Source: a plasmid
DNA length: 64,000 bases
Strand: one strand, 5' to 3'
Sequence record: NZ_CP017043.1
Positions 25,636 to 46,235 of this stretch are shown one piece after another; the stretch's first letter is position 1; every line of letters begins with the position of its first letter. Made by a program: the position numbers and the translations under genes. Below the pieces are notes generated by a model that made no database searches, was not told where the DNA came from, and saw only the letters and a program-made list of their open reading frames with translations.

Positions 25636-26016
25636 TTATTCATGGGCAAGGCTCGGATAAGCCAAGCTTCGGCAAAAAGTATTCAATCGATCATAGTCTA
25701 TGGTATATGCTTTTGTGTGATCGAAAGATTTTTTCCCTTCAGCCTTGATTGTAAGGATGAAATCCTGTTGTACAAGAGAATGAACAATCCTCTTGATAGT
25801 GCTTTCAGACCAGAAAGGGAATTCCCCATGCTGCCAGTCTGCGATTGTTTTGCATACCCATTTGCGCTCATTCTCATGGAGGCATAGCTCCGTCGTAAGA
25901 AGTTGGTCAAGTCGATGGAGAAATATCGCCTCGTTCATGCCGATCACGACTGCAAGCTCTGCTCCAAAAGAAATGATGTTCTCTCCACCGCACACGGGCG
26001 TAGATACGATGTCCAT
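25636..26016 (-). CDS. Winged-helix 'FPFWSESTIKR' domain protein, short paralog (start MDIVSTPV, SD AAGGAGG)
   Basis: Shares LAVVIGMNEAIFLHRLDQLL...FPFWSESTIKRIVHSL with the N-terminus of the adjacent 381-aa protein. The fold is like replisome-organiser/RepA N-domains. Confidence 0.5.
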   Translation of the reverse strand: MDIVSTPVCGGENIISFGAELAVVIGMNEAIFLHRLDQLLTTELCLHENERKWVCKTIADWQHGEFPFWSESTIKRIVHSLVQQDFILTIKAEGKKSFDHTKAYTIDYDRLNTFCRSLAYPSLAHE

Positions 26017-26114
26017 GATGTACCTCCTTGCATAATACGTCATCACTCATTCAGTATAACCGAATGCAGAATTAAAATACTGCACGTTTTTCTGAATGCG
26101 AAGACCGTATTTCG

Positions 26115-27236
26115 TCAAGGACTCGCCCGTCCATCCACAATTCCATGTCTTCGCAGAAACTCCTGGGCAAACACAGATCCCTCACCGTCGGCAGCTGCCT
26201 GGCGTGTGAGAAACTCGTGCAGGTTTTGTCGGTGTTCTTGTTTTTGCTCTTTTGGGGCAGGAGGCGGTACAGGTGGAACATAACTGCCAGGGGGCTGTGT
26301 TTGGGTTGGAGTTGATTCTTGCCGTGGAGTAACAGGCGCAAATGTATAGTTTTCTTTGAGCGCAGCATGAAGCCAGCCCGTCGGATTCCGGATGATCTTC
26401 GTCTGCATGGCGATCTCCAAAAGTCGGGCTTTGTCGCGCACTTTCTCCTCTCCGTAGCGACGAATAAACTGCTCCAGCGATGATGTGGATACCCCCAGTG
26501 CAGCACAAAGGCCGCGAACGTCGCCTGTTGTTGTTTCACGTATTCTATGCGTGTTCTCTGTTGTAGTCTCTGTTACGCGCGCGCGCGAGGAGGGTGCCCA
26601 AACCCGCGCCGTTACTGGGGTTTCAGCACCTTCCGTCCGTGGTGTCAAATTGACCTCTGTACGTGGTTCATCTTGCTCCCCATGTGGTGTCATTTTGACA
26701 CTTATGCGTGGTTCACCTGATTTGACCTTTTGACCTTCTATGTTATCTTCCGATATATCAGCGGCCTCATGTTCTGGTTGTGTGTCCTCGGGAGCATGGA
26801 CGTCTTCGACATATTCCATCTGCTCTCGCATCGGTGGAGGCGCAGAAATACGCCGGTCGACACTTTCTACGCTCTCCTGAAATTGCTTATGTACGATTTT
26901 TTCACTAAGCTCTTCGATCAACTCATAGTTAATGGTGTAGGCCTTCGTCTTGTTGTAGGAATTTCCGATTACCGTCGATAACATCACCTCTTGATCTTCA
27001 AGAGACTTGATGGTGCGTTTAATCGTGCTCTCCGACCAAAACGGAAATTGGACATTCCATTGCTTGACGGTATTATAAATCCAACGGCGTCCGTATTCGT
27101 CGCAGATGCCCGCCTCACGGCTGATCCAGTATTGCAGCTGCTGCAGAAATATCGCCTCATTCAGGCCGATGAGAACGGCAAGGTTCGGCTGAACGGTAAG
27201 CGGGGATTCTTGGATCAGAAGACTTGACGCTGCCAT
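26115..27236 (-). CDS. Winged-helix 'FPFWSESTIKR' domain protein, long paralog with Pro/Thr-rich C-terminal region
   Basis: The N-domain LAVLIGLNEAIFLQQLQYWI...FPFWSESTIKRTIKSL is paralogous to the upstream ORF. The C-terminus has a second helical domain (GLCAALGVSTSSLEQFIRRYGEEKV). Confidence 0.5.
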   Translation of the reverse strand: MAASSLLIQESPLTVQPNLAVLIGLNEAIFLQQLQYWISREAGICDEYGRRWIYNTVKQWNVQFPFWSESTIKRTIKSLEDQEVMLSTVIGNSYNKTKAYTINYELIEELSEKIVHKQFQESVESVDRRISAPPPMREQMEYVEDVHAPEDTQPEHEAADISEDNIEGQKVKSGEPRISVKMTPHGEQDEPRTEVNLTPRTEGAETPVTARVWAPSSRARVTETTTENTHRIRETTTGDVRGLCAALGVSTSSLEQFIRRYGEEKVRDKARLLEIAMQTKIIRNPTGWLHAALKENYTFAPVTPRQESTPTQTQPPGSYVPPVPPPAPKEQKQEHRQNLHEFLTRQAAADGEGSVFAQEFLRRHGIVDGRASP

Positions 27237-27250
27237 CGTTCTCCACCTTC

Positions 27251-27724
27251 CTATTGCCATAAAACGAGCGGATCGACATACATATAATTCCCATCCGCCC
27301 CTCGAATAATGTACTCGAGGTGCAGATGAGGTCCGGTCACGCGTCCCGTTGCACCAACAAGACCGATAATCGTGCCCTGTCCCACATACTCATCGACTCT
27401 GACATCAACCTCGGACATATGAGCATAGCGTGTATATCCATCAAATAACGGATGATAGAGAAGCACTTGATTACCATAACCGTCCGCATAGTCGCCGGCT
27501 TGTATGACAACGCCGTCGAATAATGCGGGGATAGGCGTTCCTGCCGGATACCCTAGGTCGACACCTGCGTGGAAAGACCATTCTCCTGAGATCGGATGGT
27601 AACGCCATCCGAACGCAGACGTGACAGGAAGATCCGAAGCGTATGCCTGTGCTGACAGGAAAACTAAAAGCCCCATTAGAGCCGCAGAAAAAAACGCTTC
27701 TCGTATTCTGCCCACATTATCCAC
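27251..27724 (-). CDS. Secreted M23-family (LytM) peptidase
   Basis: Signal peptide. Motifs HAGVDLGYPAGTPI and GPHLHLEY (HxxxD and HxH zinc ligands). Confidence 0.8.
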   Translation of the reverse strand: MDNVGRIREAFFSAALMGLLVFLSAQAYASDLPVTSAFGWRYHPISGEWSFHAGVDLGYPAGTPIPALFDGVVIQAGDYADGYGNQVLLYHPLFDGYTRYAHMSEVDVRVDEYVGQGTIIGLVGATGRVTGPHLHLEYIIRGADGNYMYVDPLVLWQ

Positions 27725-27747: not shown

Positions 27748-28308
27748 TTATTCGAGCTCTATTTCTCTTGACTTCGCAATGGACTTCATTTCCTTAAAGT
27801 AATCTATAAGAGCAAAATATTTCCTTCGCATCAGTCGTTTGTCTACCGAATCTGCTGGGTAACGCTCATCAATATGCGACATGAAATCTTCCAGAGATCT
27901 TTCAACACCGTCTCCACATTGAACAATATTGCGATCTACAAAATAGCGTATGTCTGACGGAAGGCCTGCATATCCAAGAGATATAATTTGTACGATGTTT
28001 TCGCTTGAATTTGTTAAATCATTTAAGTCAGCATGATGTAATATTGCTCCATCGAGCTTTGCATTTGATATATCCGCACCTCGAAGATCTGCATAGGATA
28101 AATCTGCATCACGTAAGTCGGCAAATTGTAATTGAGCACCATATAAATCTGCTCCGCCGAGATCCGCGCGCCGCAAATCTATGCCGCGAAGTTTAGCATG
28201 ACGTAAGCAAGCTCCACCAAGAAATGCGTTCTGCAGGTTACAGTGCGATAAATTCACCCTTTCCAAATCTGCACGTTGCCCCCTTCTTCCGAGAAAGCCC
28301 ATTTCCAA
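27748..28308 (-). CDS. Pentapeptide-repeat protein (186 aa)
   Basis: Tandem A(D/N)LxxA(D/N)Lxx repeats (ADLGGADLYGAQLQFADLRDADLSYADLRGADISNAKL). Confidence 0.8.
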   Translation of the reverse strand: MEMGFLGRRGQRADLERVNLSHCNLQNAFLGGACLRHAKLRGIDLRRADLGGADLYGAQLQFADLRDADLSYADLRGADISNAKLDGAILHHADLNDLTNSSENIVQIISLGYAGLPSDIRYFVDRNIVQCGDGVERSLEDFMSHIDERYPADSVDKRLMRRKYFALIDYFKEMKSIAKSREIELE

Positions 28309-28566
28309 TGCAAGTCAAGAATATTTTTCAGTTGATCTTGTGTCAGCTTTCTTCCTTTTCTAAAAGATGGCTTTTTATTTCTCATCACAATGCTCCTCCT
28401 AAACGAGAGAGAAAACGGTCATCCTTCTGATATTTAACGCCGGATATATAAACAGACGTATCATCTTTACTGCCTCGACTTTAGAAGAAACATCATTCCC
28501 CAGCCCATGATGCCAAGCAAAGCAACAACGACACGAGGGGCGGTGGACTCCACCCAAGCATTCAGA

Positions 28567-28773
28567 TCAACAACAATCATCACAGGATTCTCCTAAGTCC
28601 TCGACCACCTGAATTTCCATAAAATCAGATTCAAAACAGGAACAGGATTGTTCCACAAGTTCATGGAGATTATCAAGATTCTCCACCTTCTCACGCGCCT
28701 CATCTTCATCCTCCGCCTCGATCACGATCTCACCGGACAGATCATAAGAAAACGCAACCATGAATTTTCTCAT
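28567..28773 (-). CDS. Small acidic protein (68 aa, MRKFMVAFSYDL...)
   Basis: The ATGA start overlaps the stop of the DUF4406 gene remnant, mirroring the gene coupling seen at 32832. Acidic helical protein with a Cys-rich C-terminus. Confidence 0.45.
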   Translation of the reverse strand: MRKFMVAFSYDLSGEIVIEAEDEDEAREKVENLDNLHELVEQSCSCFESDFMEIQVVEDLGESCDDCC

Positions 28774-28852
28774 ACGATGACCTCCTCTCGTGGTTCGTAT
28801 ATGATTTCCTTGCCAAGTTGTGCTCCCAGTTTTGGAGTACATAGATGGCATC
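28771..28852 (-). pseudogene. 3' remnant of a second DUF4406 (nucleoside 2-deoxyribosyltransferase-like) gene
   Basis: Its nucleotide sequence matches the 3' end of the DUF4406 gene at 32832-32980 (gatgccatctatgt...ggaaatcatatacgaaccacgagagg) with an internal deletion. It ends where direct repeat DR1 begins. Confidence 0.55.
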
Positions 28853-28924
28853 CGCTTCGCGTCATCGCCGTTGTGATGCGAAGATACGCATCCCATTCCA
28901 GACCGCTCTACAAGAAACTCTATA
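28849..28924. repeat. 76-bp direct repeat, copy 1
   Basis: catccgcttcgcgtcatcgccgttgtgatgcgaagatacgcatcccattccagaccgctctacaagaaactctat is identical at 30446-30521. Confidence 0.9.
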
Positions 28925-29077
28925 ATGCTTTGTGTGCGGGTGATTGGCGCGGTGCATTACAATCGCTGCGGGATCATGGTCTATGGCGACATCGACGCTC
29001 CGTCCGACGGCACACGCAATACCGCTTGAAGCACCGCCGCCACCCGCAAAAACATCAACGATGATCTCATTCAGCAT
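28862..29077 (-). pseudogene. Truncated DNA cytosine-5 methyltransferase (N-terminal ~50 aa with motif I, fused to repeat-encoded tail)
   Basis: IVDVFAGGGGASSGIACAVG...VAIDHDPAAIVMHRANHP is C5-MTase motif I and surroundings. The reading frame then runs into DR1 and stops, so the catalytic PC motif and the rest are missing. Confidence 0.6.
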
Positions 29078-29435
29078 TTTCTAATTCCTCGAAATAGAAC
29101 CTGATCGGCCGGTGCGCTTTATCGGTCTCTGTGATTACCCCATATTGCATGGCTATGTGAAAGATAAAAACCTTCTCCAGACGCTCCAATACGGTTCCGA
29201 CATATTCGCGAAACTGCTCAATATCAAGCGTGCTTTTATAGTAATTGCATTTCCTGCACGCAGGTTTGTAGTTGGAGAGAGCGTTCTCTCCCCCTTTACG
29301 CAAAGGATAGACATGATCTACCCGCATTTTTTGGATGTTATCAATCTTTCTCCCACAGTACGCGCAGCGTCCCCCATACATTTCATAAACTTGACAGCGT
29401 ACCTGCTGAGAAATGCGTTTTCTCTTCGTCTGCAT
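29067..29435 (-). CDS. HNH endonuclease (122 aa)
   Basis: CAYCGRKID...DHVYPLRKGGENALSNYKPACRKCN is a canonical HNH zinc-finger nuclease motif. Confidence 0.8.
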   Translation of the reverse strand: MQTKRKRISQQVRCQVYEMYGGRCAYCGRKIDNIQKMRVDHVYPLRKGGENALSNYKPACRKCNYYKSTLDIEQFREYVGTVLERLEKVFIFHIAMQYGVITETDKAHRPIRFYFEELENAE

Positions 29436-29486
29436 TTCAACGCCTCCAAATCGACAACAACAGCAGTCTCAATCGCCGCTGTGGCG

Positions 29487-30395
29487 CTACGCAATATAAT
29501 CCTCAAAGCGATCGCAGCTACGGAAGATGATTTTATTATTCACCCATCTCTGCAAACGTCGAGCGGTCACAGGAGCGTTGGGTTTATCGTAGACCATAAT
29601 ATATGGATCATACGCATGATCTTTGAGCCAGTAGACGCGCGCCAGGTCTTCCTCGTGCGTGCTCCAATAATTGACAAGCACATATACGCGCCTCTTCCGG
29701 AAATCTGTGACAGATGTGCGTTTTGCAAAGGCAGATAACGCTCTAGGAACGCTCCAATCCTTTGGATTATCCCATGCAAAATGCAGCATTTTCACTTTAC
29801 AGGCGCTGAGGAGATCCATATTTTCCGGTGTGAACAGTCGCGCGTCGAGACCTTGCGTAAAATCAATCCATGCGCCGCTATGAGCAAGCTGTTCTAAAAG
29901 TTCCATATGCTCTTTTGCCGCCAAAATATTGGGATCAAGCAGCTTGATTATGCGTTCCCCATGCCAAAATTCATTGAGATCCGCGACTTTGTGACTTTCA
30001 TAACCTTCTTTCCAGCCAACGATGCAAAAGGGACATGCACGCGGGCAACCTCTCGTCAGAAAGCCATAAGCAATTCCTTGAATGTTATAGAGCGAATAAT
30101 CCGGACGCATATGTTCAATATGCGCCGGAAGCTGTGCGGCGCTGGTAGTTCCCGTCCCTCCGATTTCTGCACCAATCTCCGCAAGGCGTATGGAAAGCCC
30201 TTGATTCTGCGTAAACACACAGGCTGCATAAAGTTTTTCATATGGCTGAAACAAATTATTCCCCAACAGGACATCTTCAGGATAAAGCAGATGAACCTGG
30301 TCGCCCTGTTTCTTATGCCACGCCGACAGCTTCATCAGGCACAAATTGGGGAATTTCCCACCATCTACGTCAATAAGGCCAATAGTCATCGCCAT
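29487..30395 (-). CDS. Radical SAM enzyme with Rossmann/B12-binding-like N-terminal domain (302 aa)
   Basis: The cluster CPRACPFC (CxxxCxxC) lies ~118 aa in. The N-terminal region IGLIDVDGGKFPNLCLMKLSAWHKKQGDQV resembles the cobalamin-binding domain of class B radical SAM enzymes. Confidence 0.7.
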   Translation of the reverse strand: MAMTIGLIDVDGGKFPNLCLMKLSAWHKKQGDQVHLLYPEDVLLGNNLFQPYEKLYAACVFTQNQGLSIRLAEIGAEIGGTGTTSAAQLPAHIEHMRPDYSLYNIQGIAYGFLTRGCPRACPFCIVGWKEGYESHKVADLNEFWHGERIIKLLDPNILAAKEHMELLEQLAHSGAWIDFTQGLDARLFTPENMDLLSACKVKMLHFAWDNPKDWSVPRALSAFAKRTSVTDFRKRRVYVLVNYWSTHEEDLARVYWLKDHAYDPYIMVYDKPNAPVTARRLQRWVNNKIIFRSCDRFEDYIA

Positions 30396-30445: not shown

Positions 30446-30521
30446 ACATCCGCTTCGCGTCATCGCCGTTGTGATGCGAAGATACGCATCCCATTCCAGA
30501 CCGCTCTACAAGAAACTCTAT
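30446..30521. repeat. 76-bp direct repeat, copy 2
   Basis: Identical to 28849-28924. It overlaps the stop of the 117-aa ORF. Confidence 0.9.
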
Positions 30522-30871
30522 ACCTCAGAATTGATCTCGTAGATGTTTCGGTAAAAATTGTTATTCTCGTCCCGTGTTTGAATTCGGGTAATATATCCAC
30601 AATCCACCAGCTGCTTCATATACTTCGCATAGGTATTCTTGTTGATGTTAAGGTCATAGCAAATCTGATCTCTGGGGAGACAATCCGTATCGCCATATGC
30701 GCAGAGATAAGAGTAAATTGTCTTTGCAATCACATGTAAGTTTGGATCCTGCATGACAGATGTGCCGACTATGCCAGCACCGTGTTCAAGCACATTTCTG
30801 GGATGTTGTCTGATACGTTCTTCCGTCACCTGCATATTAGAGTCTTGTATGTTGCTCATGATGACCTCCAA
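30518..30871 (-). CDS. Hypothetical protein (117 aa)
   Basis: ORF with protein-like composition, in the operon downstream of the VirD4-like gene. Confidence 0.4.
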   Translation of the reverse strand: MEVIMSNIQDSNMQVTEERIRQHPRNVLEHGAGIVGTSVMQDPNLHVIAKTIYSYLCAYGDTDCLPRDQICYDLNINKNTYAKYMKQLVDCGYITRIQTRDENNNFYRNIYEINSEV

Positions 30872-30921: not shown

Positions 30922-31176
30922 CTACTCGTTCATCGCATCTACAAGCCATTGAGGAGCAAGAACATTTTTTCCATCATGGTCAAATAAGACTTGATATGTT
31001 ACAAAGAATTCTTCTGCCGCCTCTTCAGTGTAATGTTCTTCTGCCAACTCTCCATCTTCAGGACAAAGCGTTTTCCAAAAAGAACTTTCGAGAAGTTGTT
31101 TTATGGCAGTGTCTCTTGCCCCAAAGCCAATACGATAATACGGATAAAGCACGCGAGCATTTCCCATAACGTTCAC
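30922..31176 (-). CDS. Hypothetical protein (84 aa)
   Basis: ORF in the operon. Confidence 0.35.
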   Translation of the reverse strand: MNVMGNARVLYPYYRIGFGARDTAIKQLLESSFWKTLCPEDGELAEEHYTEEAAEEFFVTYQVLFDHDGKNVLAPQWLVDAMNE

Positions 31177-31224: not shown

Positions 31225-32835
31225 TTAGATACTATGACCATGAATGATCTCACTTCGCTCAGGAGCTTCATACATGCGCGAGAGAAAATAATCGTTCTCC
31301 TGATATTGAACACCAGCCACATCAACACTTCGGGTATCCATAATAATCGAGTATTTGTTCTTTTTACCGAGGATAGAAATCACCTGCATATCTGTCTTGC
31401 ATCCATAAAATTTACAAGTCTGTAACAGCTCATCAAACAAAACAGCCTTCATCCCGCATAAAGAAATATAATTCAGCCCAGGGTATTCAAATATATTTAG
31501 GCGACCTAAAGACGTACACTCATCCATTAGAATCAAGCATCTGTATCTCCCTTTCATTGGCTCTCCCTTATATCCAAATATCCAGAGCATTTCCAAGAAC
31601 ACACGAAAAATTTGGGATGGTTGGCAAGAATTACCCGGTGGAGTCACCAGATACAAAGATACGGGCTGCGTGTGATTCATAAGATCTTTTATACAGAAAT
31701 CACTTCTTTCCGTATGGTGTCTAAGCACTGGATCAAGATAATCTTTGAGTGCTGCATTTATGATGGACAGAATATAACACGCCTGATTATTCGGTATTGA
31801 CACGATTCCGTGAAGTTTATGGTCAATAATTTTTTGTACCTTTTCCGGTTCCTCTAAAGATATATATGGATACTCCAAGGGTGTATCATATATTTTCCAA
31901 TCCAAAGGCATCCAGGCATAAACAGGAGCTCCGTCTTTATCGACCATTCCAACCGTATGATCCTGTATATATTGAGCAACATCATAAAGAGATAGAGACT
32001 TTGGATGCCGATCTTGATCAGCGTGATATGTATTTTTGAGATGCAGGATGATTTTCGTAAGAACATCGGCAACTTCTTCTACAACGTCATCACATACCAT
32101 CATTTTCCCCATCCGGATCAAGGCCGACGAAAGCGTCTTTGCTACAAATAGCTTGTCAGGGCTGTCCATCCGTATCTCGTCAAGAGGATTCCAGCACGCA
32201 GATGTATCATCTGTTGCTGTCGGCTCGAATTTGATTATCGTGTTCCCGAGCCGCTTTCGATAACCTGCGGTGACTTCCCAGTATTCGCCTTTAATATCAT
32301 GCACGACTACACTAGATTTCCAACCGTCAAGGAGCGTCGGGATGATAAATCGATCGCTTCGTCTGTGATTCGACTCACCCTCAATCAATATATGATTACT
32401 GGAATTATCTCGTAAATATAGGGGCATAGGGTTCATGTGGCGTTCGACAAACCAATTATATGCTGCTGTCCTTTTATCCGCAGGAAGTATCTTAGTTAAT
32501 GGGGGCACTACGCCACTAAGAATTGTGTCATACTGGCCAATTACAACACCTTCATCAGAGATCAGTCCCATCTTGGCATATTTTTTATAACTTCCCTGCT
32601 TATTCCCGTCCTCATATTTTTTACAGAAATGTATAAGTATCGCAGTCAATAAACTAAACGCAACAAATGGTGTAATTAGACCGATCAAGGCAACATCTTC
32701 TGATACTGTAAAATTAAGAATCAGCACTACAATGCTGCAAAACGTCAATCCCAAGACGCTGAGCTTAACGGTAAACACAGCCGTTATAAGCATGAGAAAA
32801 AAGCAGAAAACAGTCCATAAATCAATATGTATCAT
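31225..32835 (-). CDS. VirD4/TraG-like coupling-protein paralog with degenerate Walker A (536 aa)
   Basis: Three N-terminal TM helices. IIPTLLDGWKSSVVVHDIKGEYWEVTAGYRKRL...CWNPLDEI and LILMDECTSLG align with the 967-aa VirD4 (TIIPTGLIWKHSIFFFDPKGELWSLTSGYRKNV...RWNPLAEV, LLLMLDEFPQLG). The P-loop position reads EGESNHRRSDRF instead of APTRSGKG. The ATGA start overlaps the DUF4406 gene. Confidence 0.65.
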   Translation of the reverse strand: MIHIDLWTVFCFFLMLITAVFTVKLSVLGLTFCSIVVLILNFTVSEDVALIGLITPFVAFSLLTAILIHFCKKYEDGNKQGSYKKYAKMGLISDEGVVIGQYDTILSGVVPPLTKILPADKRTAAYNWFVERHMNPMPLYLRDNSSNHILIEGESNHRRSDRFIIPTLLDGWKSSVVVHDIKGEYWEVTAGYRKRLGNTIIKFEPTATDDTSACWNPLDEIRMDSPDKLFVAKTLSSALIRMGKMMVCDDVVEEVADVLTKIILHLKNTYHADQDRHPKSLSLYDVAQYIQDHTVGMVDKDGAPVYAWMPLDWKIYDTPLEYPYISLEEPEKVQKIIDHKLHGIVSIPNNQACYILSIINAALKDYLDPVLRHHTERSDFCIKDLMNHTQPVSLYLVTPPGNSCQPSQIFRVFLEMLWIFGYKGEPMKGRYRCLILMDECTSLGRLNIFEYPGLNYISLCGMKAVLFDELLQTCKFYGCKTDMQVISILGKKNKYSIIMDTRSVDVAGVQYQENDYFLSRMYEAPERSEIIHGHSI

Positions 32836-33188
32836 ACGATCACTACCTCTCTCGGCTCATATATAATCTCCTTTCCAAGCTGCTCTGCAAGAGCAAGTTC
32901 CTCCCGAACGCCTCTGCTGTTCTCCCAGTTCTGCAGCACATAGATGGCATCGGCGCAGCGCACCATCTCCTTGGTGATCTGCAAATAGGCCTCCCATTCC
33001 ATTCCCCACGGCAATACCGCAGGGTTCAGAACGATACTGTCTTGCTCTTGCAGCCGCTGTTCTGCCACGGCAAATATCTGCTTATAGTCAGCAATACCAG
33101 TGATTGCCCCAGCAATGAAAACAATTTTTCCCTCAAGATTCATTTTTACTGTCCTCCATGTCGAAATGGTCTCCAAATCTACAATCAC
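32832..33188 (-). CDS. DUF4406 / nucleoside 2-deoxyribosyltransferase-like protein (118 aa)
   Basis: KIVFIAGAITGIADYKQIFAVAEQRLQEQDSIVLNPAVL...CADAIYVLQNWENSRGVREELALAEQLGKEI matches the DUF4406 pattern (YisGPmtG...vvNP...cDaiymLpgWexSxGA.xE). Confidence 0.6.
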   Translation of the reverse strand: MIVDLETISTWRTVKMNLEGKIVFIAGAITGIADYKQIFAVAEQRLQEQDSIVLNPAVLPWGMEWEAYLQITKEMVRCADAIYVLQNWENSRGVREELALAEQLGKEIIYEPREVVIV

Positions 33189-33691
33189 TGCAAATAATAG
33201 GCGCCTGATTCTATATCGCCGTATTGAAATTCATCATGATCTGTAATCTCAACAAGATCTGCTCCAAAAAAATGAGAGCCGTCTATATAAAATTTCCCAG
33301 CACGATATATTCCTGTCTCTATCATTTCCTCTCTCACTCGATATACGGGCTTTCCGTTTTCCAGGAGCACGACAACTTGACTTCCCTTCTCCCAATTTGC
33401 CATAGATGCTAGGGCATCCTTTTTATGCAGGTAGAGCACCCCTTCACGAACGAGTTTTGCTTTATCGACGCCATCTGAGATCGTGCAGCCTGTTGTTAGT
33501 ACAGATTCACTGTCTGTTGATCGGATTTCACGTTCGTAAATTACCGCTCGATAAGCGACGAAAGTCTCTCCGGGATCTACTGGAGATGTAAAAATATTTA
33601 TGGCCGTAATGATGCCTCCAAACACAACCATTAGTACCATACTGGCGATTATTATGAACAAGAATTCGTCATCGTCTCTCATATCCAACAC
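33185..33691 (-). CDS. Membrane-anchored protein (168 aa), first gene of the operon
   Basis: N-terminal TM (FLFIIIASMVLMVVFGGIITAI). The ATGA stop/start overlaps the DUF4406 gene. It is divergent from the Xre gene at 33831. Confidence 0.45.
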   Translation of the reverse strand: MLDMRDDDEFLFIIIASMVLMVVFGGIITAINIFTSPVDPGETFVAYRAVIYEREIRSTDSESVLTTGCTISDGVDKAKLVREGVLYLHKKDALASMANWEKGSQVVVLLENGKPVYRVREEMIETGIYRAGKFYIDGSHFFGADLVEITDHDEFQYGDIESGAYYLQ

Positions 33692-33830
33692 CTTTCTAAA
33701 CGCTCGTTAAATTCTCTTGCCTCGGATATAATCAGGTAGGTGACTGTAAATCACGATAAAAGACTTTTCTCAGCAACAAAAAATTGGTACAATAAACGCA
33801 AAATTTTTCGTTCCACGAAGGGGACTGACA

Positions 33831-34142
33831 ATGACAATGAAAATATCAGACTGCCTACGGAAAACCAGAAAACAACAAGGGTTATCACAGGCAGAAATGG
33901 CTGAGAAGCTACGGATAAACATGCGTACTTACCAAAACTACGAACGCGGAATAACAAAGTTTCCGGCCGAGGAGCTATATAAGCTGGTGCTCATCTTTGG
34001 CATATCAGCAGATGATTTCTTCGAAATAGAGCGACATGATGCGCCTGTGCAGCAAGCACTCGATAATCTCAGAGCAGAGATGAAACGCCAGCATAAGGAA
34101 ATCCGGGAGCTCCTCGCTGCATGCCTTCCTGATAAAGGTTGA
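33831..34142 (+). CDS. Xre-family HTH transcriptional regulator (103 aa)
   Basis: LRKTRKQQGLSQAEMAEKLRINMRTYQNYERG is a classic Xre/Cro HTH. Confidence 0.7.
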   Translation: MTMKISDCLRKTRKQQGLSQAEMAEKLRINMRTYQNYERGITKFPAEELYKLVLIFGISADDFFEIERHDAPVQQALDNLRAEMKRQHKEIRELLAACLPDKG

Positions 34143-34148
34143 CGCAGC

Positions 34149-34343
34149 CTAATTCCACCAGTATGTGAGGTCAACCCCTAGTGCCTGACTCAAAACTTCA
34201 AGTGTAGCAATGTTTTTGGGGCGCATCCGATCACGTTCCCAGTTATAAATAGAACGGCGTGTGAAGCCGGTAATCCCTGCAAGATCCGTCTGTGAAAAGC
34301 CTCGTTCCTCTCGTAAGTTCCGAAGCCTTTCCCCGAACGTCAT
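34149..34343 (-). CDS. Xre-family HTH transcriptional regulator (64 aa)
   Basis: LRNLREERGFSQTDLAGITGFTRRSIYNWER. Confidence 0.7.
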   Translation of the reverse strand: MTFGERLRNLREERGFSQTDLAGITGFTRRSIYNWERDRMRPKNIATLEVLSQALGVDLTYWWN

Positions 34344-34912
34344 GGCTCTCCATTGACAGTTTCAAAATACCTGCCAATGACCTCGATTACCTGGAGCAGC
34401 GTCTGATGAAGCTCTTCCAGGCGCAATTCCTCGATTTTGTAAAAATTCGTTTTACAAGACAGCATTTTGTTGATTCGACAGATGTCTGACTCGAGTTTAC
34501 GATAGATGGGATGTACTACCCATTTTCCCTCTGTGTGCATGGAGATGAATGAATCAAACTCCTGCTGAACGCCAGTGATATAATCTGTAAGATGAATGAT
34601 CTGCTGGATGTGGATCTTATCAAAATTGGAGATGTGGATCTCAGCCGAAATTTTTTTCAGCTGCTTTTTGCTCATGTCGATGTACTGATCTATCAGTAGT
34701 GATAGCTCTGATACACCGCCCACAGCTAATATCTGCCGATATTTCCGTATCTGTTGCTCCAACTTGCGATTCTCACGCTTCAAGCTCTCGTAGTCTGCCG
34801 GAGTAATCTTAACAATACGTTCAATCTTGGGCTCACGGGATTCCAGCGCTTGAATTTTCTCCTCGAGTTCACGGATATATTCCGCTCTATTTTTCTCGAT
34901 CTCGACTGACAT
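34340..34912 (-). CDS. Hypothetical coiled-coil protein (190 aa)
   Basis: Overlaps the start of the Xre gene (ATGA). The N-terminal part is a heptad-rich helix. Confidence 0.4.
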   Translation of the reverse strand: MSVEIEKNRAEYIRELEEKIQALESREPKIERIVKITPADYESLKRENRKLEQQIRKYRQILAVGGVSELSLLIDQYIDMSKKQLKKISAEIHISNFDKIHIQQIIHLTDYITGVQQEFDSFISMHTEGKWVVHPIYRKLESDICRINKMLSCKTNFYKIEELRLEELHQTLLQVIEVIGRYFETVNGEP

Positions 34913-35668: not shown

Positions 35669-35899
35669 TCAGCCCGCATTCGCGGGCTTTTTATTTCCCT
35701 GCTCCCCACCAACCTCAAGCAATCTATACCACTCGTTTGAAAACCCCAAAACAGCAGCAATGCGCTTTGCCACTTCTGGAGAAGGACGGCGGGTTCCTTT
35801 TTCGATAAAGTTATAATATTGCCGGCTGATGGCGCATTTCTTTGCGACATCCACCTGCGACAGATTCCCTTTGATGCGCATTTCTGTCAACCATTTCAT
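35669..35899 (-). CDS. Xre-family HTH regulator (76 aa)
   Basis: MRIKGNLSQVDVAKKCAISRQYYNFIEKG. Confidence 0.65.
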   Translation of the reverse strand: MKWLTEMRIKGNLSQVDVAKKCAISRQYYNFIEKGTRRPSPEVAKRIAAVLGFSNEWYRLLEVGGEQGNKKPANAG

Positions 35900-36053
35900 T
35901 TTTTCACCACCTAATTGCTACATTCTGTTGACAAGAAGATAATACGTCATATTTTCCTTCCTGTCAACATAGTGTAGCTAATTATTTCGAATAGCTATAT
36001 TCTGTTGCATCCATTGATGTTGCTACAAATAGTTGACATAATGTAACAGGGGG

Positions 36054-36413
36054 TTGCAGATGAACAGAATGAAATTATTGCGTGAGCAACACAACCTGAG
36101 TCAAACAGATCTAGCTAAAAAGTTAAATATAAGCCGACAGTCATATAATTTCTACGAAAATGAAAAGCGGGATCCAGATACCGCAATGCTAGTTCGAATA
36201 GCCGATTTCTTTAATGTCAGCCTGGATTATCTGCTTGGTCGAACAAACGACCCTTCACCGATCGTAAAAGAAATGACTCCCTCCTATCAGGAGGAAGTCA
36301 TACAGGATCTTGAGGATATTACACCAGATATGGCCAGCGAAATACGTCAGTATATCAGCTATCTAAAACACAAAAAAGGAGCTGCTGAAATGGGTATTAC
36401 GAAAAAAAAGTAG
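36054..36413 (+). CDS. Xre-family HTH regulator (119 aa)
   Basis: LREQHNLSQTDLAKKLNISRQSYNFYENEKR. Confidence 0.7.
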   Translation: MQMNRMKLLREQHNLSQTDLAKKLNISRQSYNFYENEKRDPDTAMLVRIADFFNVSLDYLLGRTNDPSPIVKEMTPSYQEEVIQDLEDITPDMASEIRQYISYLKHKKGAAEMGITKKK

Positions 36414-36516: not shown

Positions 36517-37602
36517 TTGTCCGTCCATAAAGACACAAAGCGCGGAACATGGTACGTAAAGATCAAATACACCGACTGGACAGGCGAAAAGAGGGAAACG
36601 ACCCGCAGAGGATTCGCAAAGAAAAAAGACGCGCAGCTATTTGAGCAGGATTTTCACCGGCAGAAACAAGGCGCTCATTCCATGACCTTCAAGGCATTAT
36701 ATGATCTATACATGGAGGACATAAAACCACGCATAAGACCTACAACATATCGAAGCAAGGAATATATGTTCACCTCAAAGGTGTTGCCGTTCTTCGCAAA
36801 TTTGCCTTGCGACCAGATTACTCCTGCAAAAATACGGCAGTGGCAAAACGAACTTGTCAAAGGCGATTATCAAGAGACATACCTCCGTACTATCAACAAC
36901 CAAGTTGCAGCCATCTTCAACTTTGCGGTAAATTATTATGGTCTACCAACTAACCCCGCAAAACGAGCAGGGATGATCGGAAAGAGTCATGCCGATGCAA
37001 TGAGATTCTGGACGGTTGATGATTTTCAAAAATTTATCAATCACACCACTACTCCACTATACAGAATTTCTTTTTTAATCCTTTTCTGGACAGGGATGCG
37101 TGTTGGAGAGTTTTTGGCACTGACCTTGGAGGACTTTGATTTTGACAAAAATTTGATACACATAACCAAAAGCTACGCACGGCTAGATAACAAGACTATA
37201 ATCGGCCCGCCTAAGACACCAAAGAGCCGCCGTGATGTCAGCATCCCTGCATTTCTTGTCGATGAAGTCCAGCAGTTTATCCAAGCGCAGCATTCAATCA
37301 ATCCAAATGCACGATTATTTGAAACCGGTAAACATGGATTATCTTATGAAATGAAGCGTGTAGCTGCACAGGTTGGCATAGAGAAAATTCGCCTTCATGA
37401 TCTTAGGCACTCTCATGCCTCCTATCTCATTCACCGAGGAATACCGATCATAGCGATTTCACAACGCCTCGGTCATGAAAAAATCGAGACTACACTACAA
37501 ACCTACGCTCACCTATATCCACAAGAGCGCGATATGATTATTGCTGCCATCGAAAGCGATCCGGCAACAAAAGGAGGGTCAAACGGGGGTCACGGAAAAT
37601 AA
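36517..37602 (+). CDS. int: Tyrosine site-specific recombinase/integrase (361 aa; probable TTG start)
   Basis: N-terminal SAM-like arm-binding domain. The catalytic region has R...HDLRHSHASYLIHRG...LGHEKIETTLQTYAHLY (the R-H-R-Y tetrad). Confidence 0.85.
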   Translation: MSVHKDTKRGTWYVKIKYTDWTGEKRETTRRGFAKKKDAQLFEQDFHRQKQGAHSMTFKALYDLYMEDIKPRIRPTTYRSKEYMFTSKVLPFFANLPCDQITPAKIRQWQNELVKGDYQETYLRTINNQVAAIFNFAVNYYGLPTNPAKRAGMIGKSHADAMRFWTVDDFQKFINHTTTPLYRISFLILFWTGMRVGEFLALTLEDFDFDKNLIHITKSYARLDNKTIIGPPKTPKSRRDVSIPAFLVDEVQQFIQAQHSINPNARLFETGKHGLSYEMKRVAAQVGIEKIRLHDLRHSHASYLIHRGIPIIAISQRLGHEKIETTLQTYAHLYPQERDMIIAAIESDPATKGGSNGGHGK

Positions 37603-37641
37603 ATAAGCGCAGATACCCTTGATATACAAGGCGCTCTGCGC
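37603..37641 (+). terminator. Intrinsic terminator after int
   Basis: aagcgcagatacccttgatatacaaggcgctctgcgctt hairpin (AAGCGCAGA/TCTGCGCTT) followed by atttcta. Confidence 0.5.
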
Positions 37642-37795
37642 TTATTTCTACTATTCGAGTTCAACTATACCACATTAACATTGTTTTGCAACCCCTGTAT
37701 TTCAGCCCTTTTCATTCTCTCTATTCTACGGATTCTCCATATTCTACATCTTTTTCGAGTTTTTCGGGGTCAAATGAGGGTCAGAGGATTCCTCA

Positions 37796-41277: not shown

Positions 41278-42201
41278 CTATCTGATATTATCATTGCTCT
41301 TTCTATACTTGTCGCACGCTTCTTGGAACGTCTTTCCCATTGTAATCAGAATATCTTTAAGCGCTCTCTGCGCTTCACTGGATACGCGAGTCGCAGAAAT
41401 TTCTTTCATGAAATCATCTATCCTCATTGAAGGTTTATCGTCAATAACATCTCTGCTGATAATTGTACGCAATCCCAAATCACAAGCAAGGTGAATAGTA
41501 TCTCCGTTGTCCGGAATAAATTGAACCTGCATAAAGCGGTTTTGCAGGTCAGATTGTCGAAAATGGCATTTTTCAATATAGCTATCCAAAAACCCACTGT
41601 GTGTAAAGTCACATTTCTTAAAAGTGGCTTCATCAAAAGTACATTGTATAAAGGCTACATTCAAAAACTTGTTATCGGTAAATACAGACGTAGAAAAATC
41701 GGCACAAACCGGATTTACCGCCAAAAAACGATTCCCTTCGAGATGACAATTTTTTTCAAGCCAGACATGGTTGAGATTTGCTTCACGAAACACATTATCC
41801 GAAAATCGACACTGGTTGAATTTTGATTTTCCCAACATTGTGTTCTGCAGATCACATTGATTGATTCTACATACAGACATAGTTGTTTGTAGAATTTTGG
41901 CATTTAAGAAATTGCAACTTTCAAAAGTAACGTCAGATATATTTGCATTGCTTAATTGTGCATCAGTGAAATCACAATCCTTAAAATGCAGACGTTCCAT
42001 GGAAACGCCCGACAAGTCCGCTCCACGAAAAATCATGGAGTGAAACGGATGGATTTCGTTTGAGGAGCAAAAATCAAAACCCCGTAAATCACAATTTGTA
42101 AAATCTGCTTGTCTGCCGGATTCGTGATTCGTTTGCATCCATCGGTCATGATCGCTTAGAATCCGGCGCACCTCATCCGAAGAAACCTGCCGTCTATCCA
42201 T
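41278..42201 (-). CDS. Pentapeptide-repeat protein (307 aa)
   Basis: Long array of pentapeptide repeats (ADLSGVSMERLHFKDCDFTDAQLSNANISDVTFESCNFLNAKI...). Confidence 0.8.
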   Translation of the reverse strand: MDRRQVSSDEVRRILSDHDRWMQTNHESGRQADFTNCDLRGFDFCSSNEIHPFHSMIFRGADLSGVSMERLHFKDCDFTDAQLSNANISDVTFESCNFLNAKILQTTMSVCRINQCDLQNTMLGKSKFNQCRFSDNVFREANLNHVWLEKNCHLEGNRFLAVNPVCADFSTSVFTDNKFLNVAFIQCTFDEATFKKCDFTHSGFLDSYIEKCHFRQSDLQNRFMQVQFIPDNGDTIHLACDLGLRTIISRDVIDDKPSMRIDDFMKEISATRVSSEAQRALKDILITMGKTFQEACDKYRKSNDNIR

Positions 42202-43256: not shown

Positions 43257-46235
43257 ATGGCTTTATATCATTTTACGGTCAAAAATGACAAGCGCCCCAA
43301 GACAAAGACACAGATTCCGGCCGTCGAACATTCCGACTATATTAACCGCGAGGGAAAATATAAAAATGCAGATGAACGCCAGCCGCAAAGCATGGATAAT
43401 GTTATATCCTCAAATCGCAAACTGGATGCGATCGACGGACGAACCGTTTTGCTTTATTCCAGTCCATATGGAAAAATCACCAATACGGAAAAAGGGATTG
43501 CAGTCACGGATGATCCATCCTATGACACAATCTCAATGGCGCTCATGGTAGCAAAAGAGACCATGGACGAGCCTCTGAGCGTGAATGGCAGTCTTGCCTT
43601 CAAAGCAAAATGTATCCATGCTGCTGTTTTGGCCGATCTGCCAATTACCTTCAAAGATTCAAATATGCAGAGCGTCCTCGACAAGAAGCGAAAGGAGAAA
43701 CAGGATGAGCGAGAACGATTTAGAGAACAAGGTGGACGAGTTATCATCCGCAAGAACATTCCAAAGCCCGACATTGACGAAAATCAGCGTGGAAATGCCG
43801 AGACTGTTACCATCGGAACCTTACCCACAATGCGTCAACTGCCCAAACTCCCTGTGGATGGCACTCGATCAGAGGACGCTGCGTTGCTGGTGTCAAGTGA
43901 TGAGAGTGGTCAGCTGGGACACGACGGAGACACACGCAATCCCCCTGTGCGATGGGATCTATCTGACGGACGAGAACAGTACGCTCGAAGAACCGCAAGA
44001 CGAATCCTAGACAACATCGAAAGCAACATGGATGCGATATACGCACAGCGCCATGTTGAGTACATCAACCGAGAAAAAGCATTTTCGGAGCGCGGCGATT
44101 GCGTCTATAAGCAGCACCATCTTCCCAAATGGGCGAAGGATTCGCCCAGCGTCTTTTTTCGAGCAGCAGACCGTTACTCTCCAAAAAACGCAGCACGATA
44201 TAAGGAGCTCGAATTTGCTCTGCAAAACGAATTGACCTTGGAGCAAAACCTAGAGATTGTGAATAGATTCATCCAAGAGAACCTGCCGGATCATTACTAT
44301 ACGCTCGCCGTACATGATAAAATCGGCGCGATGTCTGACGGGACACATAATCTTCATGTTCATCTGGTGTTCTCCACCCGTCTGATTGACGAAGTAGAAA
44401 AAAAGAAAGAGCGGAAGCGATCCGCTTACTTTCGCTATCCGCTGCGTGATAATGTAAAGGAAAAAACCGAAGATGCGATGCGCAGCCATGGAGCGCCTAT
44501 CGACCGCAAATGGTCAGATCGCACCTACGTCCCACATTTGCGGGCATCTTATGAAGAAATCGTAAACTCTGTACTAGAGAGATATGGATACAGCGCAAGA
44601 ATAGACCATCGCAGCCTAAAAGCGCAAGAACAGGAAGCCCGCATGAATGGGGATATTGTTCTTGCCAATCTCTTGCACCGTATCCCGGAGGAGCACATCA
44701 GCAAGCACGGTGTGCTTGAGGAGAGCAATCCGCAGGTGCAGCGGATTAAGAAATACCGCATCCACAAGAAAGAGTATCAAGATTTACTGTTTGCGGCCGA
44801 ACTTGTCGCCCACGGCATAGAGGAGGATGAGCGAAAAGAGAAGACGGGACGGCTCAAGAAAAATATCAAAGCGGTCGTATCATCGAACGAGTTCATCGAA
44901 AGTGAAAACGACGCCAATTCACATATTGGCGAACTCCGAGACAGCTTCGTTGAAGCCGTCCATGCACATGAGCACTTACAGCGGATGCTGGTGTCTGCCG
45001 AGGATGCACGCGAAAACGCAAAACTCGAGTATATGACGCCGGAGGAGAAAGAAACCTATCAAGCGTATAAGAAGCTTCTGTCGGACATCCAGCGTTGGAC
45101 AGATTTTAAGGAAAACCTGTCAGAACCTAAAAATCCGACAAACGAAGAGCTAGCTGCATATCGGCAGCTATTGCCCGCGCTCGATGAAAAGCTGTCGAAC
45201 CTCCAGCAGGAAAAAGCCCTGCTTCAGGACAAAATAGATGAACTGGAAATTCGATTGCAGAATACAGATATACAGAAACAGATTCAGCTCATCACGCACA
45301 AGACGCTGCAGGCCAATGTCAAAATACGCAAAGAGCTGGCGAAGGCCGAGCAAAACCTGGAAATATCCATACGCGCGCTGGAGCAAGGCTTATTCTCGGA
45401 AACACACGCTGAAAATCAGCAAGACACCTATACAACGCATCAGCTCTATTCCATCATACGAAAGCGATTTTACGGCTATAAGAAGGAAGTGGAGCGACTG
45501 CAAAAACAGCTGGACGCAGCAAAAAAGAAGGTCTTGTCTATGGATCGCGCATTACAGATGGCAAGCAACATCTACACAAAGGGCGGTCTGAAAAAACTGC
45601 GCGAGGATCTGCGCAGCCTGAAAAAGAAGGAAGGCTACCTGCAAAGCGATCAGGCGAAACTAGAGCAAGACATCGCAGCGTTTCGCAAGCTGCCGACGCC
45701 GCCCTCTACGGATCGCGACCTGTACGCAGAATATCAAGAACGGTACAGCGCCCTCGCCTCACGGCGTGACGAGCTGAATCAACGGATCCATGACCTGGCA
45801 AATCAAAAAATCGAGCTGGAGCAGCGGAAGAAACGACTGGCCGCTCAGATCGACTCGCCGCAAGGGAAGGCCAAAATCAAAGATATTGCGCTTGGTATCA
45901 TGAAGAAAAATGCTCCCTATCAAGAGCAATATGATACGCTGCAGGGACGCCTGGAACGAGCAACAGGAAAAATGAACCGTGCAAAGGTGCAAATGGAGGC
46001 GCTGGCCAAAGCGGTACAAAAAGATAAGGGCAACACACAGCGTTATAAAGTAGCTGCACCCGTAAAAGCCAAAGACATGCCTAGCATTATCGCCGAAGCA
46101 GTGTCCGGAAACTCACACTATGCGAGTTTGGTCGCAACGATGCGGGATGATAATAGGGCGCTAAAGACGTGGACGCTCATGTCCGAGGCTGCCAAGGCAG
46201 AAGAGGCAAATAAAAGATACTACCAAGATCTATAA
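43257..46235 (+). CDS. MobA/MobL-family (MOBQ) conjugative relaxase with long coiled-coil C-terminal domain (992 aa)
   Basis: N-terminal MALYHFTVKNDKRPKTKTQIPAVEHSDYINREGKY (catalytic Tyr motif). HUH-type motif GTHNLHVHLVFSTR. A ~500-aa helical, Q/E/K-rich C-terminus. Confidence 0.75.
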   Translation: MALYHFTVKNDKRPKTKTQIPAVEHSDYINREGKYKNADERQPQSMDNVISSNRKLDAIDGRTVLLYSSPYGKITNTEKGIAVTDDPSYDTISMALMVAKETMDEPLSVNGSLAFKAKCIHAAVLADLPITFKDSNMQSVLDKKRKEKQDERERFREQGGRVIIRKNIPKPDIDENQRGNAETVTIGTLPTMRQLPKLPVDGTRSEDAALLVSSDESGQLGHDGDTRNPPVRWDLSDGREQYARRTARRILDNIESNMDAIYAQRHVEYINREKAFSERGDCVYKQHHLPKWAKDSPSVFFRAADRYSPKNAARYKELEFALQNELTLEQNLEIVNRFIQENLPDHYYTLAVHDKIGAMSDGTHNLHVHLVFSTRLIDEVEKKKERKRSAYFRYPLRDNVKEKTEDAMRSHGAPIDRKWSDRTYVPHLRASYEEIVNSVLERYGYSARIDHRSLKAQEQEARMNGDIVLANLLHRIPEEHISKHGVLEESNPQVQRIKKYRIHKKEYQDLLFAAELVAHGIEEDERKEKTGRLKKNIKAVVSSNEFIESENDANSHIGELRDSFVEAVHAHEHLQRMLVSAEDARENAKLEYMTPEEKETYQAYKKLLSDIQRWTDFKENLSEPKNPTNEELAAYRQLLPALDEKLSNLQQEKALLQDKIDELEIRLQNTDIQKQIQLITHKTLQANVKIRKELAKAEQNLEISIRALEQGLFSETHAENQQDTYTTHQLYSIIRKRFYGYKKEVERLQKQLDAAKKKVLSMDRALQMASNIYTKGGLKKLREDLRSLKKKEGYLQSDQAKLEQDIAAFRKLPTPPSTDRDLYAEYQERYSALASRRDELNQRIHDLANQKIELEQRKKRLAAQIDSPQGKAKIKDIALGIMKKNAPYQEQYDTLQGRLERATGKMNRAKVQMEALAKAVQKDKGNTQRYKVAAPVKAKDMPSIIAEAVSGNSHYASLVATMRDDNRALKTWTLMSEAAKAEEANKRYYQDL

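Follow-up and report, generated by a model that had tools for sequence, protein, structure and literature searches.

Type IV coupling proteins (T4CPs), among them VirD4, TraG, TrwB and Cagbeta, are seen as obligate ATPase gatekeepers in conjugation. Here we analyse a shortened T4CP-like gene, sT4CP (31225-32835, minus strand, 536 aa), in a 64,000-nucleotide stretch of plasmid sequence record NZ_CP017043.1 (the window), which is almost wholly occupied by one conjugative element with a P-type type IV secretion system (T4SS). Related copies of this element in metagenome contigs are located immediately 3' of guaA or next to other genes of the chromosome, where the integrase marks the element end, so the element is an ICE (integrative and conjugative element). 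Its named relatives are from Selenomonas. sT4CP is like the T4CPs in its homology to PF02534, its fold, its Walker B motif, its RecA-like sheet and its location on a conjugative element. It is unlike them in its destroyed Walker A motif, in the loss of the periplasmic loop or anchor, the C-terminal RecA part and the tail, and in its operon slot. The sequence indicates an ATPase-dead, shortened T4CP homologue that cannot serve as a T4CP motor, and the gene is maintained by purifying selection.

In Clostridium perfringens plasmid pCW3, the conjugation locus has a second gene of coupling-protein type: TcpB, encoded beside the coupling protein TcpA, is dispensable for transfer and missing from some relatives (PMC6137059, PMC3181468). 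TcpB, compared here by description only, belongs to the FtsK/TcpA-type ATPase lineage and to different hosts. A protein of comparable concept is CtiC of SGI1, a decoy that mimics the C-terminus of the relaxase TraI and inhibits IncC transfer (PMC13635750). CtiC too is a derivative of a conjugation protein, carried on an integrative element and acting as a decoy against a competing plasmid; however, it is relaxase-derived and its function was shown experimentally, whereas sT4CP is T4CP-derived and we infer a decoy role for it only indirectly. Two conflict systems join a T4CP-like or HerA-FtsK module to a nucleotide- or NAD-cleaving effector, namely Menshen, where T4SS-DNA_transf domains have been reported as putative sensors in a few NsnA proteins (PMC12065111), and HerA-Sir2 (Nezha). 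The sT4CP locus differs from both in its dead ATPase, encoded by an unfused gene, in giving no PADLOC match and in not occurring in varied genomic contexts. The gene immediately upstream of sT4CP encodes a DUF4406 protein, which shares its fold (TM ~0.6) and an S-x-G-V-x-x-E glutamate motif with nucleoside 2-deoxyribosyltransferases (NDTs), DNPH1 (Rcl) and BcmB-MilB. It is shorter than these (~100 aa), 13-26% identical to them and placed in a separate Pfam family, PF14359.

A preliminary description of the locus had presented three co-directional minus-strand open reading frames (ORFs), 31225-32835, 32832-33188 and 33185-33691, as a candidate new module. All three are present. Neither the literature nor PADLOC, NCBIfam or PHROGs yielded a description of an ATPase-dead T4CP derivative or of such a protein paired with DUF4406, and none of these three resources gave anything specific for sT4CP or for the membrane protein encoded at 33185-33691. 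Literature searches on DUF4406, degenerate T4CP paralogues, Selenomonas ICEs and NDT-like anti-defence genes did not retrieve a description of the gene pair either, which agrees with the novelty previously claimed.

Motif loss and fold of sT4CP

sT4CP matched the PF02534 (T4SS-DNA_transf) profile with an E-value of 1.3e-35 and a score of 123.6 (gathering score, 20.1), the match covering only profile positions 37-321 of 468. The genuine T4CP of the element (14290-17193, minus strand, 967 aa) matches PF02534, PF12696 and PF10412, whereas the Pfam search retrieved neither PF12696 nor PF10412 with sT4CP. Its scores for the NCBIfam TraG/VirD4 models were also under the cutoffs (153 vs 586 for TraG; 75 vs 728). 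BLASTP aligned sT4CP with the genuine T4CP at 26% identity (E 1e-23, 92 bits), pairing H-ILIEGESNHRRSDRFIIPTLL of the former with H-MLLMAPTRSGKGVCTIIPTGL of the latter. The P-loop of sT4CP is degenerate, with GESNHRRS (residues 153-160) opposite the intact Walker A motif APTRSGKG, so that G-K becomes R-R, whereas Walker B is intact (LILMDE, residues 434-439, opposite LLMLDE). The replaced P-loop and the aligned LMDE box of the preliminary description were thus confirmed, and alignment revealed no intact P-loop. Across the family, the Walker A lysine is replaced by arginine in all 15 members aligned and the preceding glycine by arginine or serine. The P-loop differs by allele (GESNHRRSDRF, VDESSRRSDQF, GSAQYSRSDRF and GESYYRRSDRF), and only R-S-D-x-F, preceded by R or S, is fixed. 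D438 and E439 of Walker B are invariant across 62 sequences.

Compared with the T4CPs of Selenomonadaceae plasmids, sT4CP lacks the periplasmic loop between the transmembrane helices, a coiled-coil insert of ~90 aa, ~75 aa each from the all-alpha domain and the C-terminal RecA part (in the latter, the NCHLQIFYAPND...TGRALMT region) and the C-terminal tail. The C-terminal RecA part of T4CPs carries the sensor and Arg-finger region. In the window, the N-terminus of sT4CP forms three packed hydrophobic helices with no periplasmic loop. Outside the deleted parts, every residue that is invariant in T4CPs has been retained. The AlphaFold2 model shows a confident RecA-like sheet with flanking helices (core pLDDT 75-94) and is poor at residues 295-340 and 478-510. 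The best Foldseek matches of the model were Cagbeta (E 6e-12), TrwB and DotL (entries 8dol, 1e9r and 6sz9), and HerA-Sir2 was among the weak ones. Sequence searches of the PDB retrieved nothing with the single sequence and only Cagbeta 8dol with the family profile. Judged from the model, sT4CP keeps the RecA-like core sheet, Walker B and much of the all-alpha domain and would still be a folded T4CP domain.

sT4CP also lies outside the VirB10-T4CP-VirB11 slot, which is held by 14290-17193 and TrbB. It is located ~10 kb upstream, near the regulatory module. Four of the six defining T4CP features tested are therefore missing (Walker A, the membrane anchor and loop, a complete C-terminal RecA part and the operon slot), and annotation of the gene as a functional TraG/VirD4 is not warranted.

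Distribution, origin and alleles

A word-indexed search of 5.8 billion proteins retrieved ~17 sT4CP clusters of 455-537 aa, which are 61-99% identical. Beyond these, the matches dropped sharply to ordinary T4CPs (~770-800 aa) with at most 45% identity. Only one of 185,579 species genomes encoded sT4CP, a Selenomonas metagenome-assembled genome (L011) with the same ICE gene order. The contexts recovered place the pairing of sT4CP with DUF4406 only in ICEs of one family and invariably in a single operon slot, and none of them showed it elsewhere in a genome. The pair, not the trio, is standard in this ICE family, with no known conjugative role.

sT4CP has its nearest full-length relatives among the T4CPs encoded by P-type plasmids of Selenomonadaceae (35-45% identity, 246 bits). 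These T4CPs sit in normal VirB8-B9-B10-T4CP-VirB11 operons of ParA/ParB plasmids, as in Megamonas funiformis plasmid NZ_CP048628.1. Sequence comparison thus traces sT4CP to a lineage of plasmid-like T4CPs from that same bacterial family. The preliminary description had regarded sT4CP as a homologue of the element's own T4CP; the homology stands, but a recent duplication was rejected, since the 26% identity between the two is lower than that to plasmid-type T4CPs. A function as an adaptor for a plasmid-type relaxase was also considered and is unsupported, as the relaxases of the ICE and of the plasmids share 30-34% identity and are no closer than other T4SS genes. A further candidate short T4CP, P0117 (607 aa), proved to be a contig-end fragment with an intact P-loop.

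The commonest sT4CP allele has 463 aa and 251 member sequences and is deleted for residues 6-74, that is, the whole membrane anchor; it lies beside a DUF4406 that was seen on 127 contigs. sT4CP is thus often unable to sit in the membrane. One metagenome copy (L092, 10606-11945) contains an insertion sequence (IS) with an rve-family transposase, which splits the gene into pieces of 463 and 108 aa. sT4CP is therefore dispensable for survival of the element.

Selection and exchange of alleles

Pairwise dN/dS ratios were calculated by the Nei-Gojobori method. Among at least six intact alleles, sT4CP had ratios of 0.22-0.28 at dS 0.6-1.4, and its ORF (455-537 codons) was intact in all alleles examined. 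A relic would not remain open across such divergence. The corresponding ratios were 0.06-0.18 for DUF4406, 0.05-0.10 for CagX, 0.02-0.05 for VirB8 and 0.22-0.32 for the membrane protein. In sliding windows, residues 141-240 of sT4CP (IIPTLLDGW…WNPLDEI) had ratios of 0.07-0.13, at the level of core T4SS genes, and the anchor and the C-terminus 0.36-0.55. No sliding window exceeded 0.55, and no positive selection was detected in sT4CP. It is a functional gene under purifying selection, which is strongest in the conserved T4CP core.

The ICE variants L091 and L092/L094 have near-identical backbones (CagX dN 0.01) but sT4CP alleles that differ with a dN of 0.32. Since alleles have been swapped between near-identical T4SS backbones, sT4CP is not co-adapted to the T4SS of its own ICE. 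The comparison of L005 with L091 yielded a dN of 0.056 for DUF4406 and 0.238 for sT4CP, which indicates that the alleles of the two genes have recombined independently. Directly downstream of sT4CP lies a gene of 81-84 aa (orf84; an 84-aa ORF at 30922-31176, minus strand, in the window), for which no family match was retrieved. It is 96-99% identical across ICE variants whose sT4CPs share only 61-65% identity. Either constraint on the gene is very strong or a sweep has occurred recently.

The DUF4406 protein

The DUF4406 ORF (32832-33188, minus strand) matched PF14359 (E 1.4e-28) and phrog_355, 'nucleoside 2-deoxyribosyltransferase' (E 1.7e-28), as expected from its previous assignment as NDT-like. 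Its reading frame is open to a GTG at 33188, and the conserved start is the ATG at 33143, with GGAGGA 8 nt upstream. The resulting protein (32832-33143) has 103 aa, in line with the 103-104 aa of its homologues, and the structural model shows the first 15 residues of the longer reading frame as disordered. The stop codon overlaps the sT4CP start as GTATGATA at 32832-32835. With the start at 33143, the distance to the membrane gene is a gap of 41 nt. Of the ATGA overlaps reported between the three genes, the one between DUF4406 and sT4CP is therefore real, and the one with the membrane gene is an artefact of the GTG extension.

The AlphaFold2 model of DUF4406 (pLDDT 85) has an NDT-like flavodoxin-type fold. 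The top Foldseek matches were 2a0k, 6qai, 8qc0, DNPH1 and BcmB (probability 1.0), and the structural matches comprise NDTs, DNPH1/Rcl and the CMP N-glycosidases BcmB and MilB; a PDB sequence search gave no meaningful match. The motif S91-R-G-V-R-E-E97 (S-x-G-V-x-E-E) is conserved, with E97 kept in at least 90% of 37 homologues, the exceptions being frameshifted. The Gly-rich loop after strand 1 (SGAITG) is conserved as well. By analogy with these enzymes, E97 would occupy the position of the nucleophiles Rcl E93 and NDT E98, and the SGAITG loop presumably resembles the 5'-phosphate loop of Rcl and so likens DUF4406 to the nucleotide-specific members of the group. By this analogy, the substrate would be a nucleotide rather than a nucleoside. 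We read DUF4406 as a putative N-glycosidase-type enzyme whose gene, separate from sT4CP and more widely conserved, heads the transfer operon.

A sister ICE family (S. artemidis, with a serine recombinase) encodes DUF4406 in the same place, after the same 64-aa helix-turn-helix (HTH) protein (HTH64) and divergent Xre. The genes next in line are those for a small membrane protein and an M23 peptidase, and neither sT4CP nor an HTH_36 gene is present. DUF4406 is therefore the older and more widespread occupant of the slot, sT4CP and its downstream neighbours being an insertion in one subfamily. DUF4406 also occurs alone in phages, and in some viral contigs it is found among early genes. On one IMG/VR viral contig (L106, 4995-8282), there is a 14-nt overlap between it and the start of a NAMPT-like gene (PF18127 and PF04095), and a 168-aa ORF and an NAD synthase (PF02540, E 1e-52) follow. 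This is possibly an NAD-salvage or anti-defence cluster headed by DUF4406. By analogy, the viral NAMPT context may be a lead, and a single one, to NAD-related or anti-defence chemistry for DUF4406.

Possible roles of sT4CP

We tentatively favour, while putting it at less than an even chance, a role of sT4CP as a non-catalytic binding decoy or competitor, most plausibly directed against competing P-type plasmids. sT4CP would derive by exaptation from a P-type (TraG/VirD4) coupling protein and would be catalytically inactive, having lost everything needed for ATP hydrolysis or for docking to the T4SS channel. It would act by binding, not by energising, and would sequester partners of the nucleotide-binding or all-alpha domain of T4CPs; candidate partners are the relaxase, relaxosome accessory factors and T4SS ATPases. 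The most likely targets would be those of competing P-type plasmids in the same hosts, resulting in fertility-inhibition-type interference during ICE transfer. Allelic shuffling, the lack of co-evolution with the T4SS of the ICE and the plasmid-type T4CP origin point indirectly, at the level of sequence, to such interference. Docking to the channel is not needed for sT4CP, because the periplasmic loop is deleted and the commonest allele has no anchor. The DUF4406 protein and the membrane protein would be neighbours of sT4CP rather than obligate partners.

Several points weigh against a decoy. Its binding mode is inferred, and an identity of only 35-45% to plasmid T4CPs does not single out a specific present-day target. 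The invariant D438 and E439 of Walker B are left unexplained if nucleotide chemistry is irrelevant. The invariant adjacency of DUF4406 and the overlap of start and stop codons could mean a functional link between the two genes, and the IS-disrupted copy in L092, by showing that sT4CP is dispensable, fits any accessory role equally well. Finally, confinement to one ICE family means that the genomic context provides little independent information. A broader proposal, in which conversion of a T4CP has produced a pseudo-enzyme that serves as a weapon or a sensor, seems somewhat doubtful: sT4CP would be either a decoy against rival P-type plasmids or, together with DUF4406, a sensor of incoming relaxase-DNA complexes. 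In the sensor version, the DUF4406 N-glycosidase and sT4CP would form a new two-gene anti-plasmid or anti-defence system. As a decoy or a sensor, sT4CP would be the first described non-catalytic T4CP derivative in mobile-element conflict, and a conserved, selected and often soluble dead T4CP would show that the substrate-binding scaffold can be reused without the motor. As a decoy in particular, it would be a compact, genetically encoded factor that inhibits the transfer of plasmids in Negativicutes of mouth and gut, and a handle to learn which T4CP surfaces bind relaxosomes.

sT4CP might instead be an accessory or regulatory factor in the transfer of its own ICE, as an adaptor, chaperone or brake, which we consider unlikely. 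It would then hold the ICE relaxosome or the HTH_36 protein, or modulate the real T4CP, as CagZ holds Cagbeta, and its top structural match is the Cagbeta-CagZ entry 8dol. Gene layout suggests that sT4CP is co-transcribed with the T4SS genes downstream of a CI/Cro-like switch. It is always followed by the 81-84-aa gene and/or the HTH_36 gene, the sister ICE family is without both sT4CP and HTH_36, and purifying selection also fits an accessory factor. On the other hand, the swapping of alleles between near-identical backbones argues against co-evolution with the T4SS or the T4CP, and mixed oligomers are unlikely because sT4CP is only 26% identical to the ICE's own T4CP. Moreover, window-type ICEs combine an intact sT4CP with an HTH_36 protein truncated to 117 aa, and the sister ICE family presumably transfers without sT4CP. 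Were sT4CP merely a tolerated accessory gene, the outcome would be a modest correction of its annotation as a functional TraG/VirD4. Another explanation, that sT4CP is a functionless and decaying relic of a second T4CP left by element fusion or recombination, is very improbable. It would account for the multiple internal deletions, the destroyed P-loop and its variation among alleles, dN/dS ratios 3-5 times above those of core T4SS genes, the IS-disrupted copy in L092 and the fragmentary second copy in the window, and TcpB of pCW3 is a precedent for a dispensable second FtsK-like paralogue (PMC6137059, PMC3181468). Decay is nevertheless at odds with ORFs that are intact at dS 0.6-1.4 in the alleles examined, with dN/dS ratios of 0.22-0.28 overall and 0.07-0.13 in the core (in no window above 0.55) and with the retention of all T4CP-invariant residues outside the deletions.

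The preliminary description had proposed a defence or anti-defence module. In such a two-gene conflict system, sT4CP would be a T4CP-derived sensor of incoming conjugative or phage DNA-protein complexes, and DUF4406 an NDT/DNPH1-like effector that cleaves a nucleotide, an NAD-related molecule or a signal. The ATGA-type overlap and the adjacency are invariant in all alleles, DUF4406 keeps a catalytic-type glutamate motif and an NDT/DNPH1/BcmB fold, and in one viral contig it heads the NAMPT-NadE NAD-salvage cluster. The T4SS-DNA_transf domains that have been reported as putative sensors for a few NsnA proteins of Menshen (PMC12065111) are also in line with this view, as is the existence of ATPase-plus-NADase pairs such as HerA-Sir2, to which sT4CP shows weak fold similarity. 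However, no defence hallmark was found: PADLOC models gave no match for DUF4406 or the membrane protein and only a 13-bit, chance-level match for sT4CP, and the unit was seen neither in varied neighbourhoods nor in defence islands. The pair is confined to one ICE family and one slot, and its sole match among species genomes has the same gene order. Further arguments against two-gene function are that DUF4406 stands alone at the same operon position in the sister ICE family, and in phages, that alleles are reassorted between L005 and L091 and that, in the remnant copy described below, the start of sT4CP is taken over by a PcfM-like gene. We therefore regard a dedicated conflict system of these two genes as improbable.

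Membrane protein, regulators and operon layout

The membrane gene (33185-33691, minus strand) encodes a single-pass membrane or periplasmic protein (165-168 aa) with one N-terminal hydrophobic segment, in agreement with its earlier description as a transmembrane protein. Its length in relatives is 165-213 aa, and variants share 37-45% identity. It belongs to a fast-evolving orphan family with a conserved C-terminal domain of ~130 aa and had no Pfam match. Homologues amounted to two clusters in the word-indexed search and 12 representatives among 1.84 billion proteins, neither of which gives a functional clue. The gene is missing in L093. It is best read as a lineage-specific envelope protein, a neighbour and not an obligate partner of sT4CP.

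Upstream lies a divergent Xre-type HTH regulator (33831-34142, plus strand, 103 aa; HTH_3, E 9e-14). It is present in window-, L005- and L099-type ICEs and missing or vestigial in L091-L098, so the divergent gene of the preliminary description exists, but an Xre-controlled operon of three genes is not supported. A conserved pair of the same operon follows further upstream (34149-34912, minus strand), comprising HTH64 (34149-34343) and a 190-aa coiled-coil protein (34340-34912). The genes for the Cro-like xre76 (35669-35899, minus strand, 76 aa) and the CI-like xre119 (36054-36413, plus strand, 119 aa) share a divergent promoter region (35900-36050), a phage-like CI/Cro-type switch heading the transfer operon. 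The best sigma-70-like promoter in the region, by consensus match only, is TTGACA-17-TATTAT (35939-35967, minus strand), which is likely to be the start of the long minus-strand operon.

DUF4406, sT4CP and the membrane gene lie on the minus strand between the integrase-side regulatory module and the T4SS genes. The gene order in related ICEs is int, xre, xre, small ORFs, the 190-aa gene, HTH64, the divergent Xre, the membrane protein, DUF4406, sT4CP, the 81-84-aa gene, the HTH_36 protein, M23 peptidase and, after further genes, VirB8; the divergent Xre, the membrane protein and the 81-84-aa gene vary. The operon is co-directional with short gaps from the CI/Cro-like switch at ~35.95 kb into the T4SS genes, and no convincing terminator was seen after the trio. 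With a variable or absent membrane gene, a variable Xre and genes embedded in a long transfer operon, a three-gene module is not a suitable description. The HTH_36, or replication-initiator-like, gene is represented in the window by an N-terminal fragment (30518-30871, minus strand, 117 aa) and is full length (361-369 aa) in L091, L092, L094 and L095. The N-termini of two more ORFs (25636-26046 and 26115-27260, both minus strand) resemble the HTH_36/DnaD-like fragment and share the motif …LNEAIFL…FPFWSESTIKR… with it, so the element has paralogous replication-initiator-like genes.

Remnant copy and cargo

A remnant of a second copy, noted previously, contains the frameshifted 3' half of DUF4406 (28770-28905, minus strand, 77% nucleotide identity) and a 45-nt 3' end of sT4CP (28424-28468, minus strand), which is of the P0010-type allele and 96% identical to L093/L094. 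The start of sT4CP is not preserved: the homology to the intact pair ends exactly at the ATGA, where a 68-aa DpnD/PcfM-like gene (28567-28773, minus strand) begins instead. The two copies of a perfect 76-nt direct repeat (28849-28924 and 30447-30522) stand on either side of a cargo insertion of 1.5 kb (28862-30395), which encodes a truncated C5 cytosine methyltransferase (28862-29077; the first ~52 codons, with the FAGGGG motif), an HNH endonuclease (29067-29435) and a radical-SAM-like protein (29487-30395; phrog_9298, E 6e-90). The cargo is absent from L005 and splits a region that is a single HTH_36 gene of 361-369 aa in other ICE variants. The 3' end of DUF4406 is a recurrent point of crossover and cargo insertion. 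L103 (GCA_015473145.1, 5777-8908), a frameshift-rich assembly, is a further sign of this, with two DUF4406 copies flanking an orf84 homologue and a Dam-type methyltransferase fragment; a sT4CP without the membrane anchor comes after the two copies.

The conjugative element

The T4SS components of the element include VirB8 (20767-21537), VirB9/CagX (19617-20747), VirB10/TrbI (18278-19594), TrbB/VirB11 (13334-14293) beside the genuine T4CP, and VirB4 (8870-11320), the T4CP being placed in a VirB8-VirB9-VirB10-T4CP-TrbB operon. Two TrbL/VirB6 genes, topoisomerase III (Topo III) and a single-stranded DNA-binding protein (SSB) are also encoded, along with a MobA/MobL relaxase (43257-46235) and a tyrosine integrase (36517-37602). 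In the window, the neighbours of the integrase are SSB, Topo III and pentapeptide genes and not chromosomal genes (37603-37795), and homology to the guaA-integrated L091 and L096 starts at ~37658, beside a hairpin. These integrase flanks and the junction indicate that the window, L005 and L095 represent the ICE in either a circular (excised or plasmid-like) or a tandem form. A whole circular element would fit the contigs of 63-66 kb from other samples.

Two pentapeptide-repeat proteins are encoded on the minus strand, one adjoining the remnant region (27748-28308) and one adjoining Topo III and SSB (41278-42201). Some pentapeptide-repeat proteins mimic DNA, and the two on this element could serve in anti-restriction or topoisomerase protection. 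A HipA_C-domain kinase-like gene (47655-48575) and a ParM/actin-like (ALP_N) segregation gene (49592-50830), both on the minus strand, represent plasmid-style maintenance functions on an integrating element.

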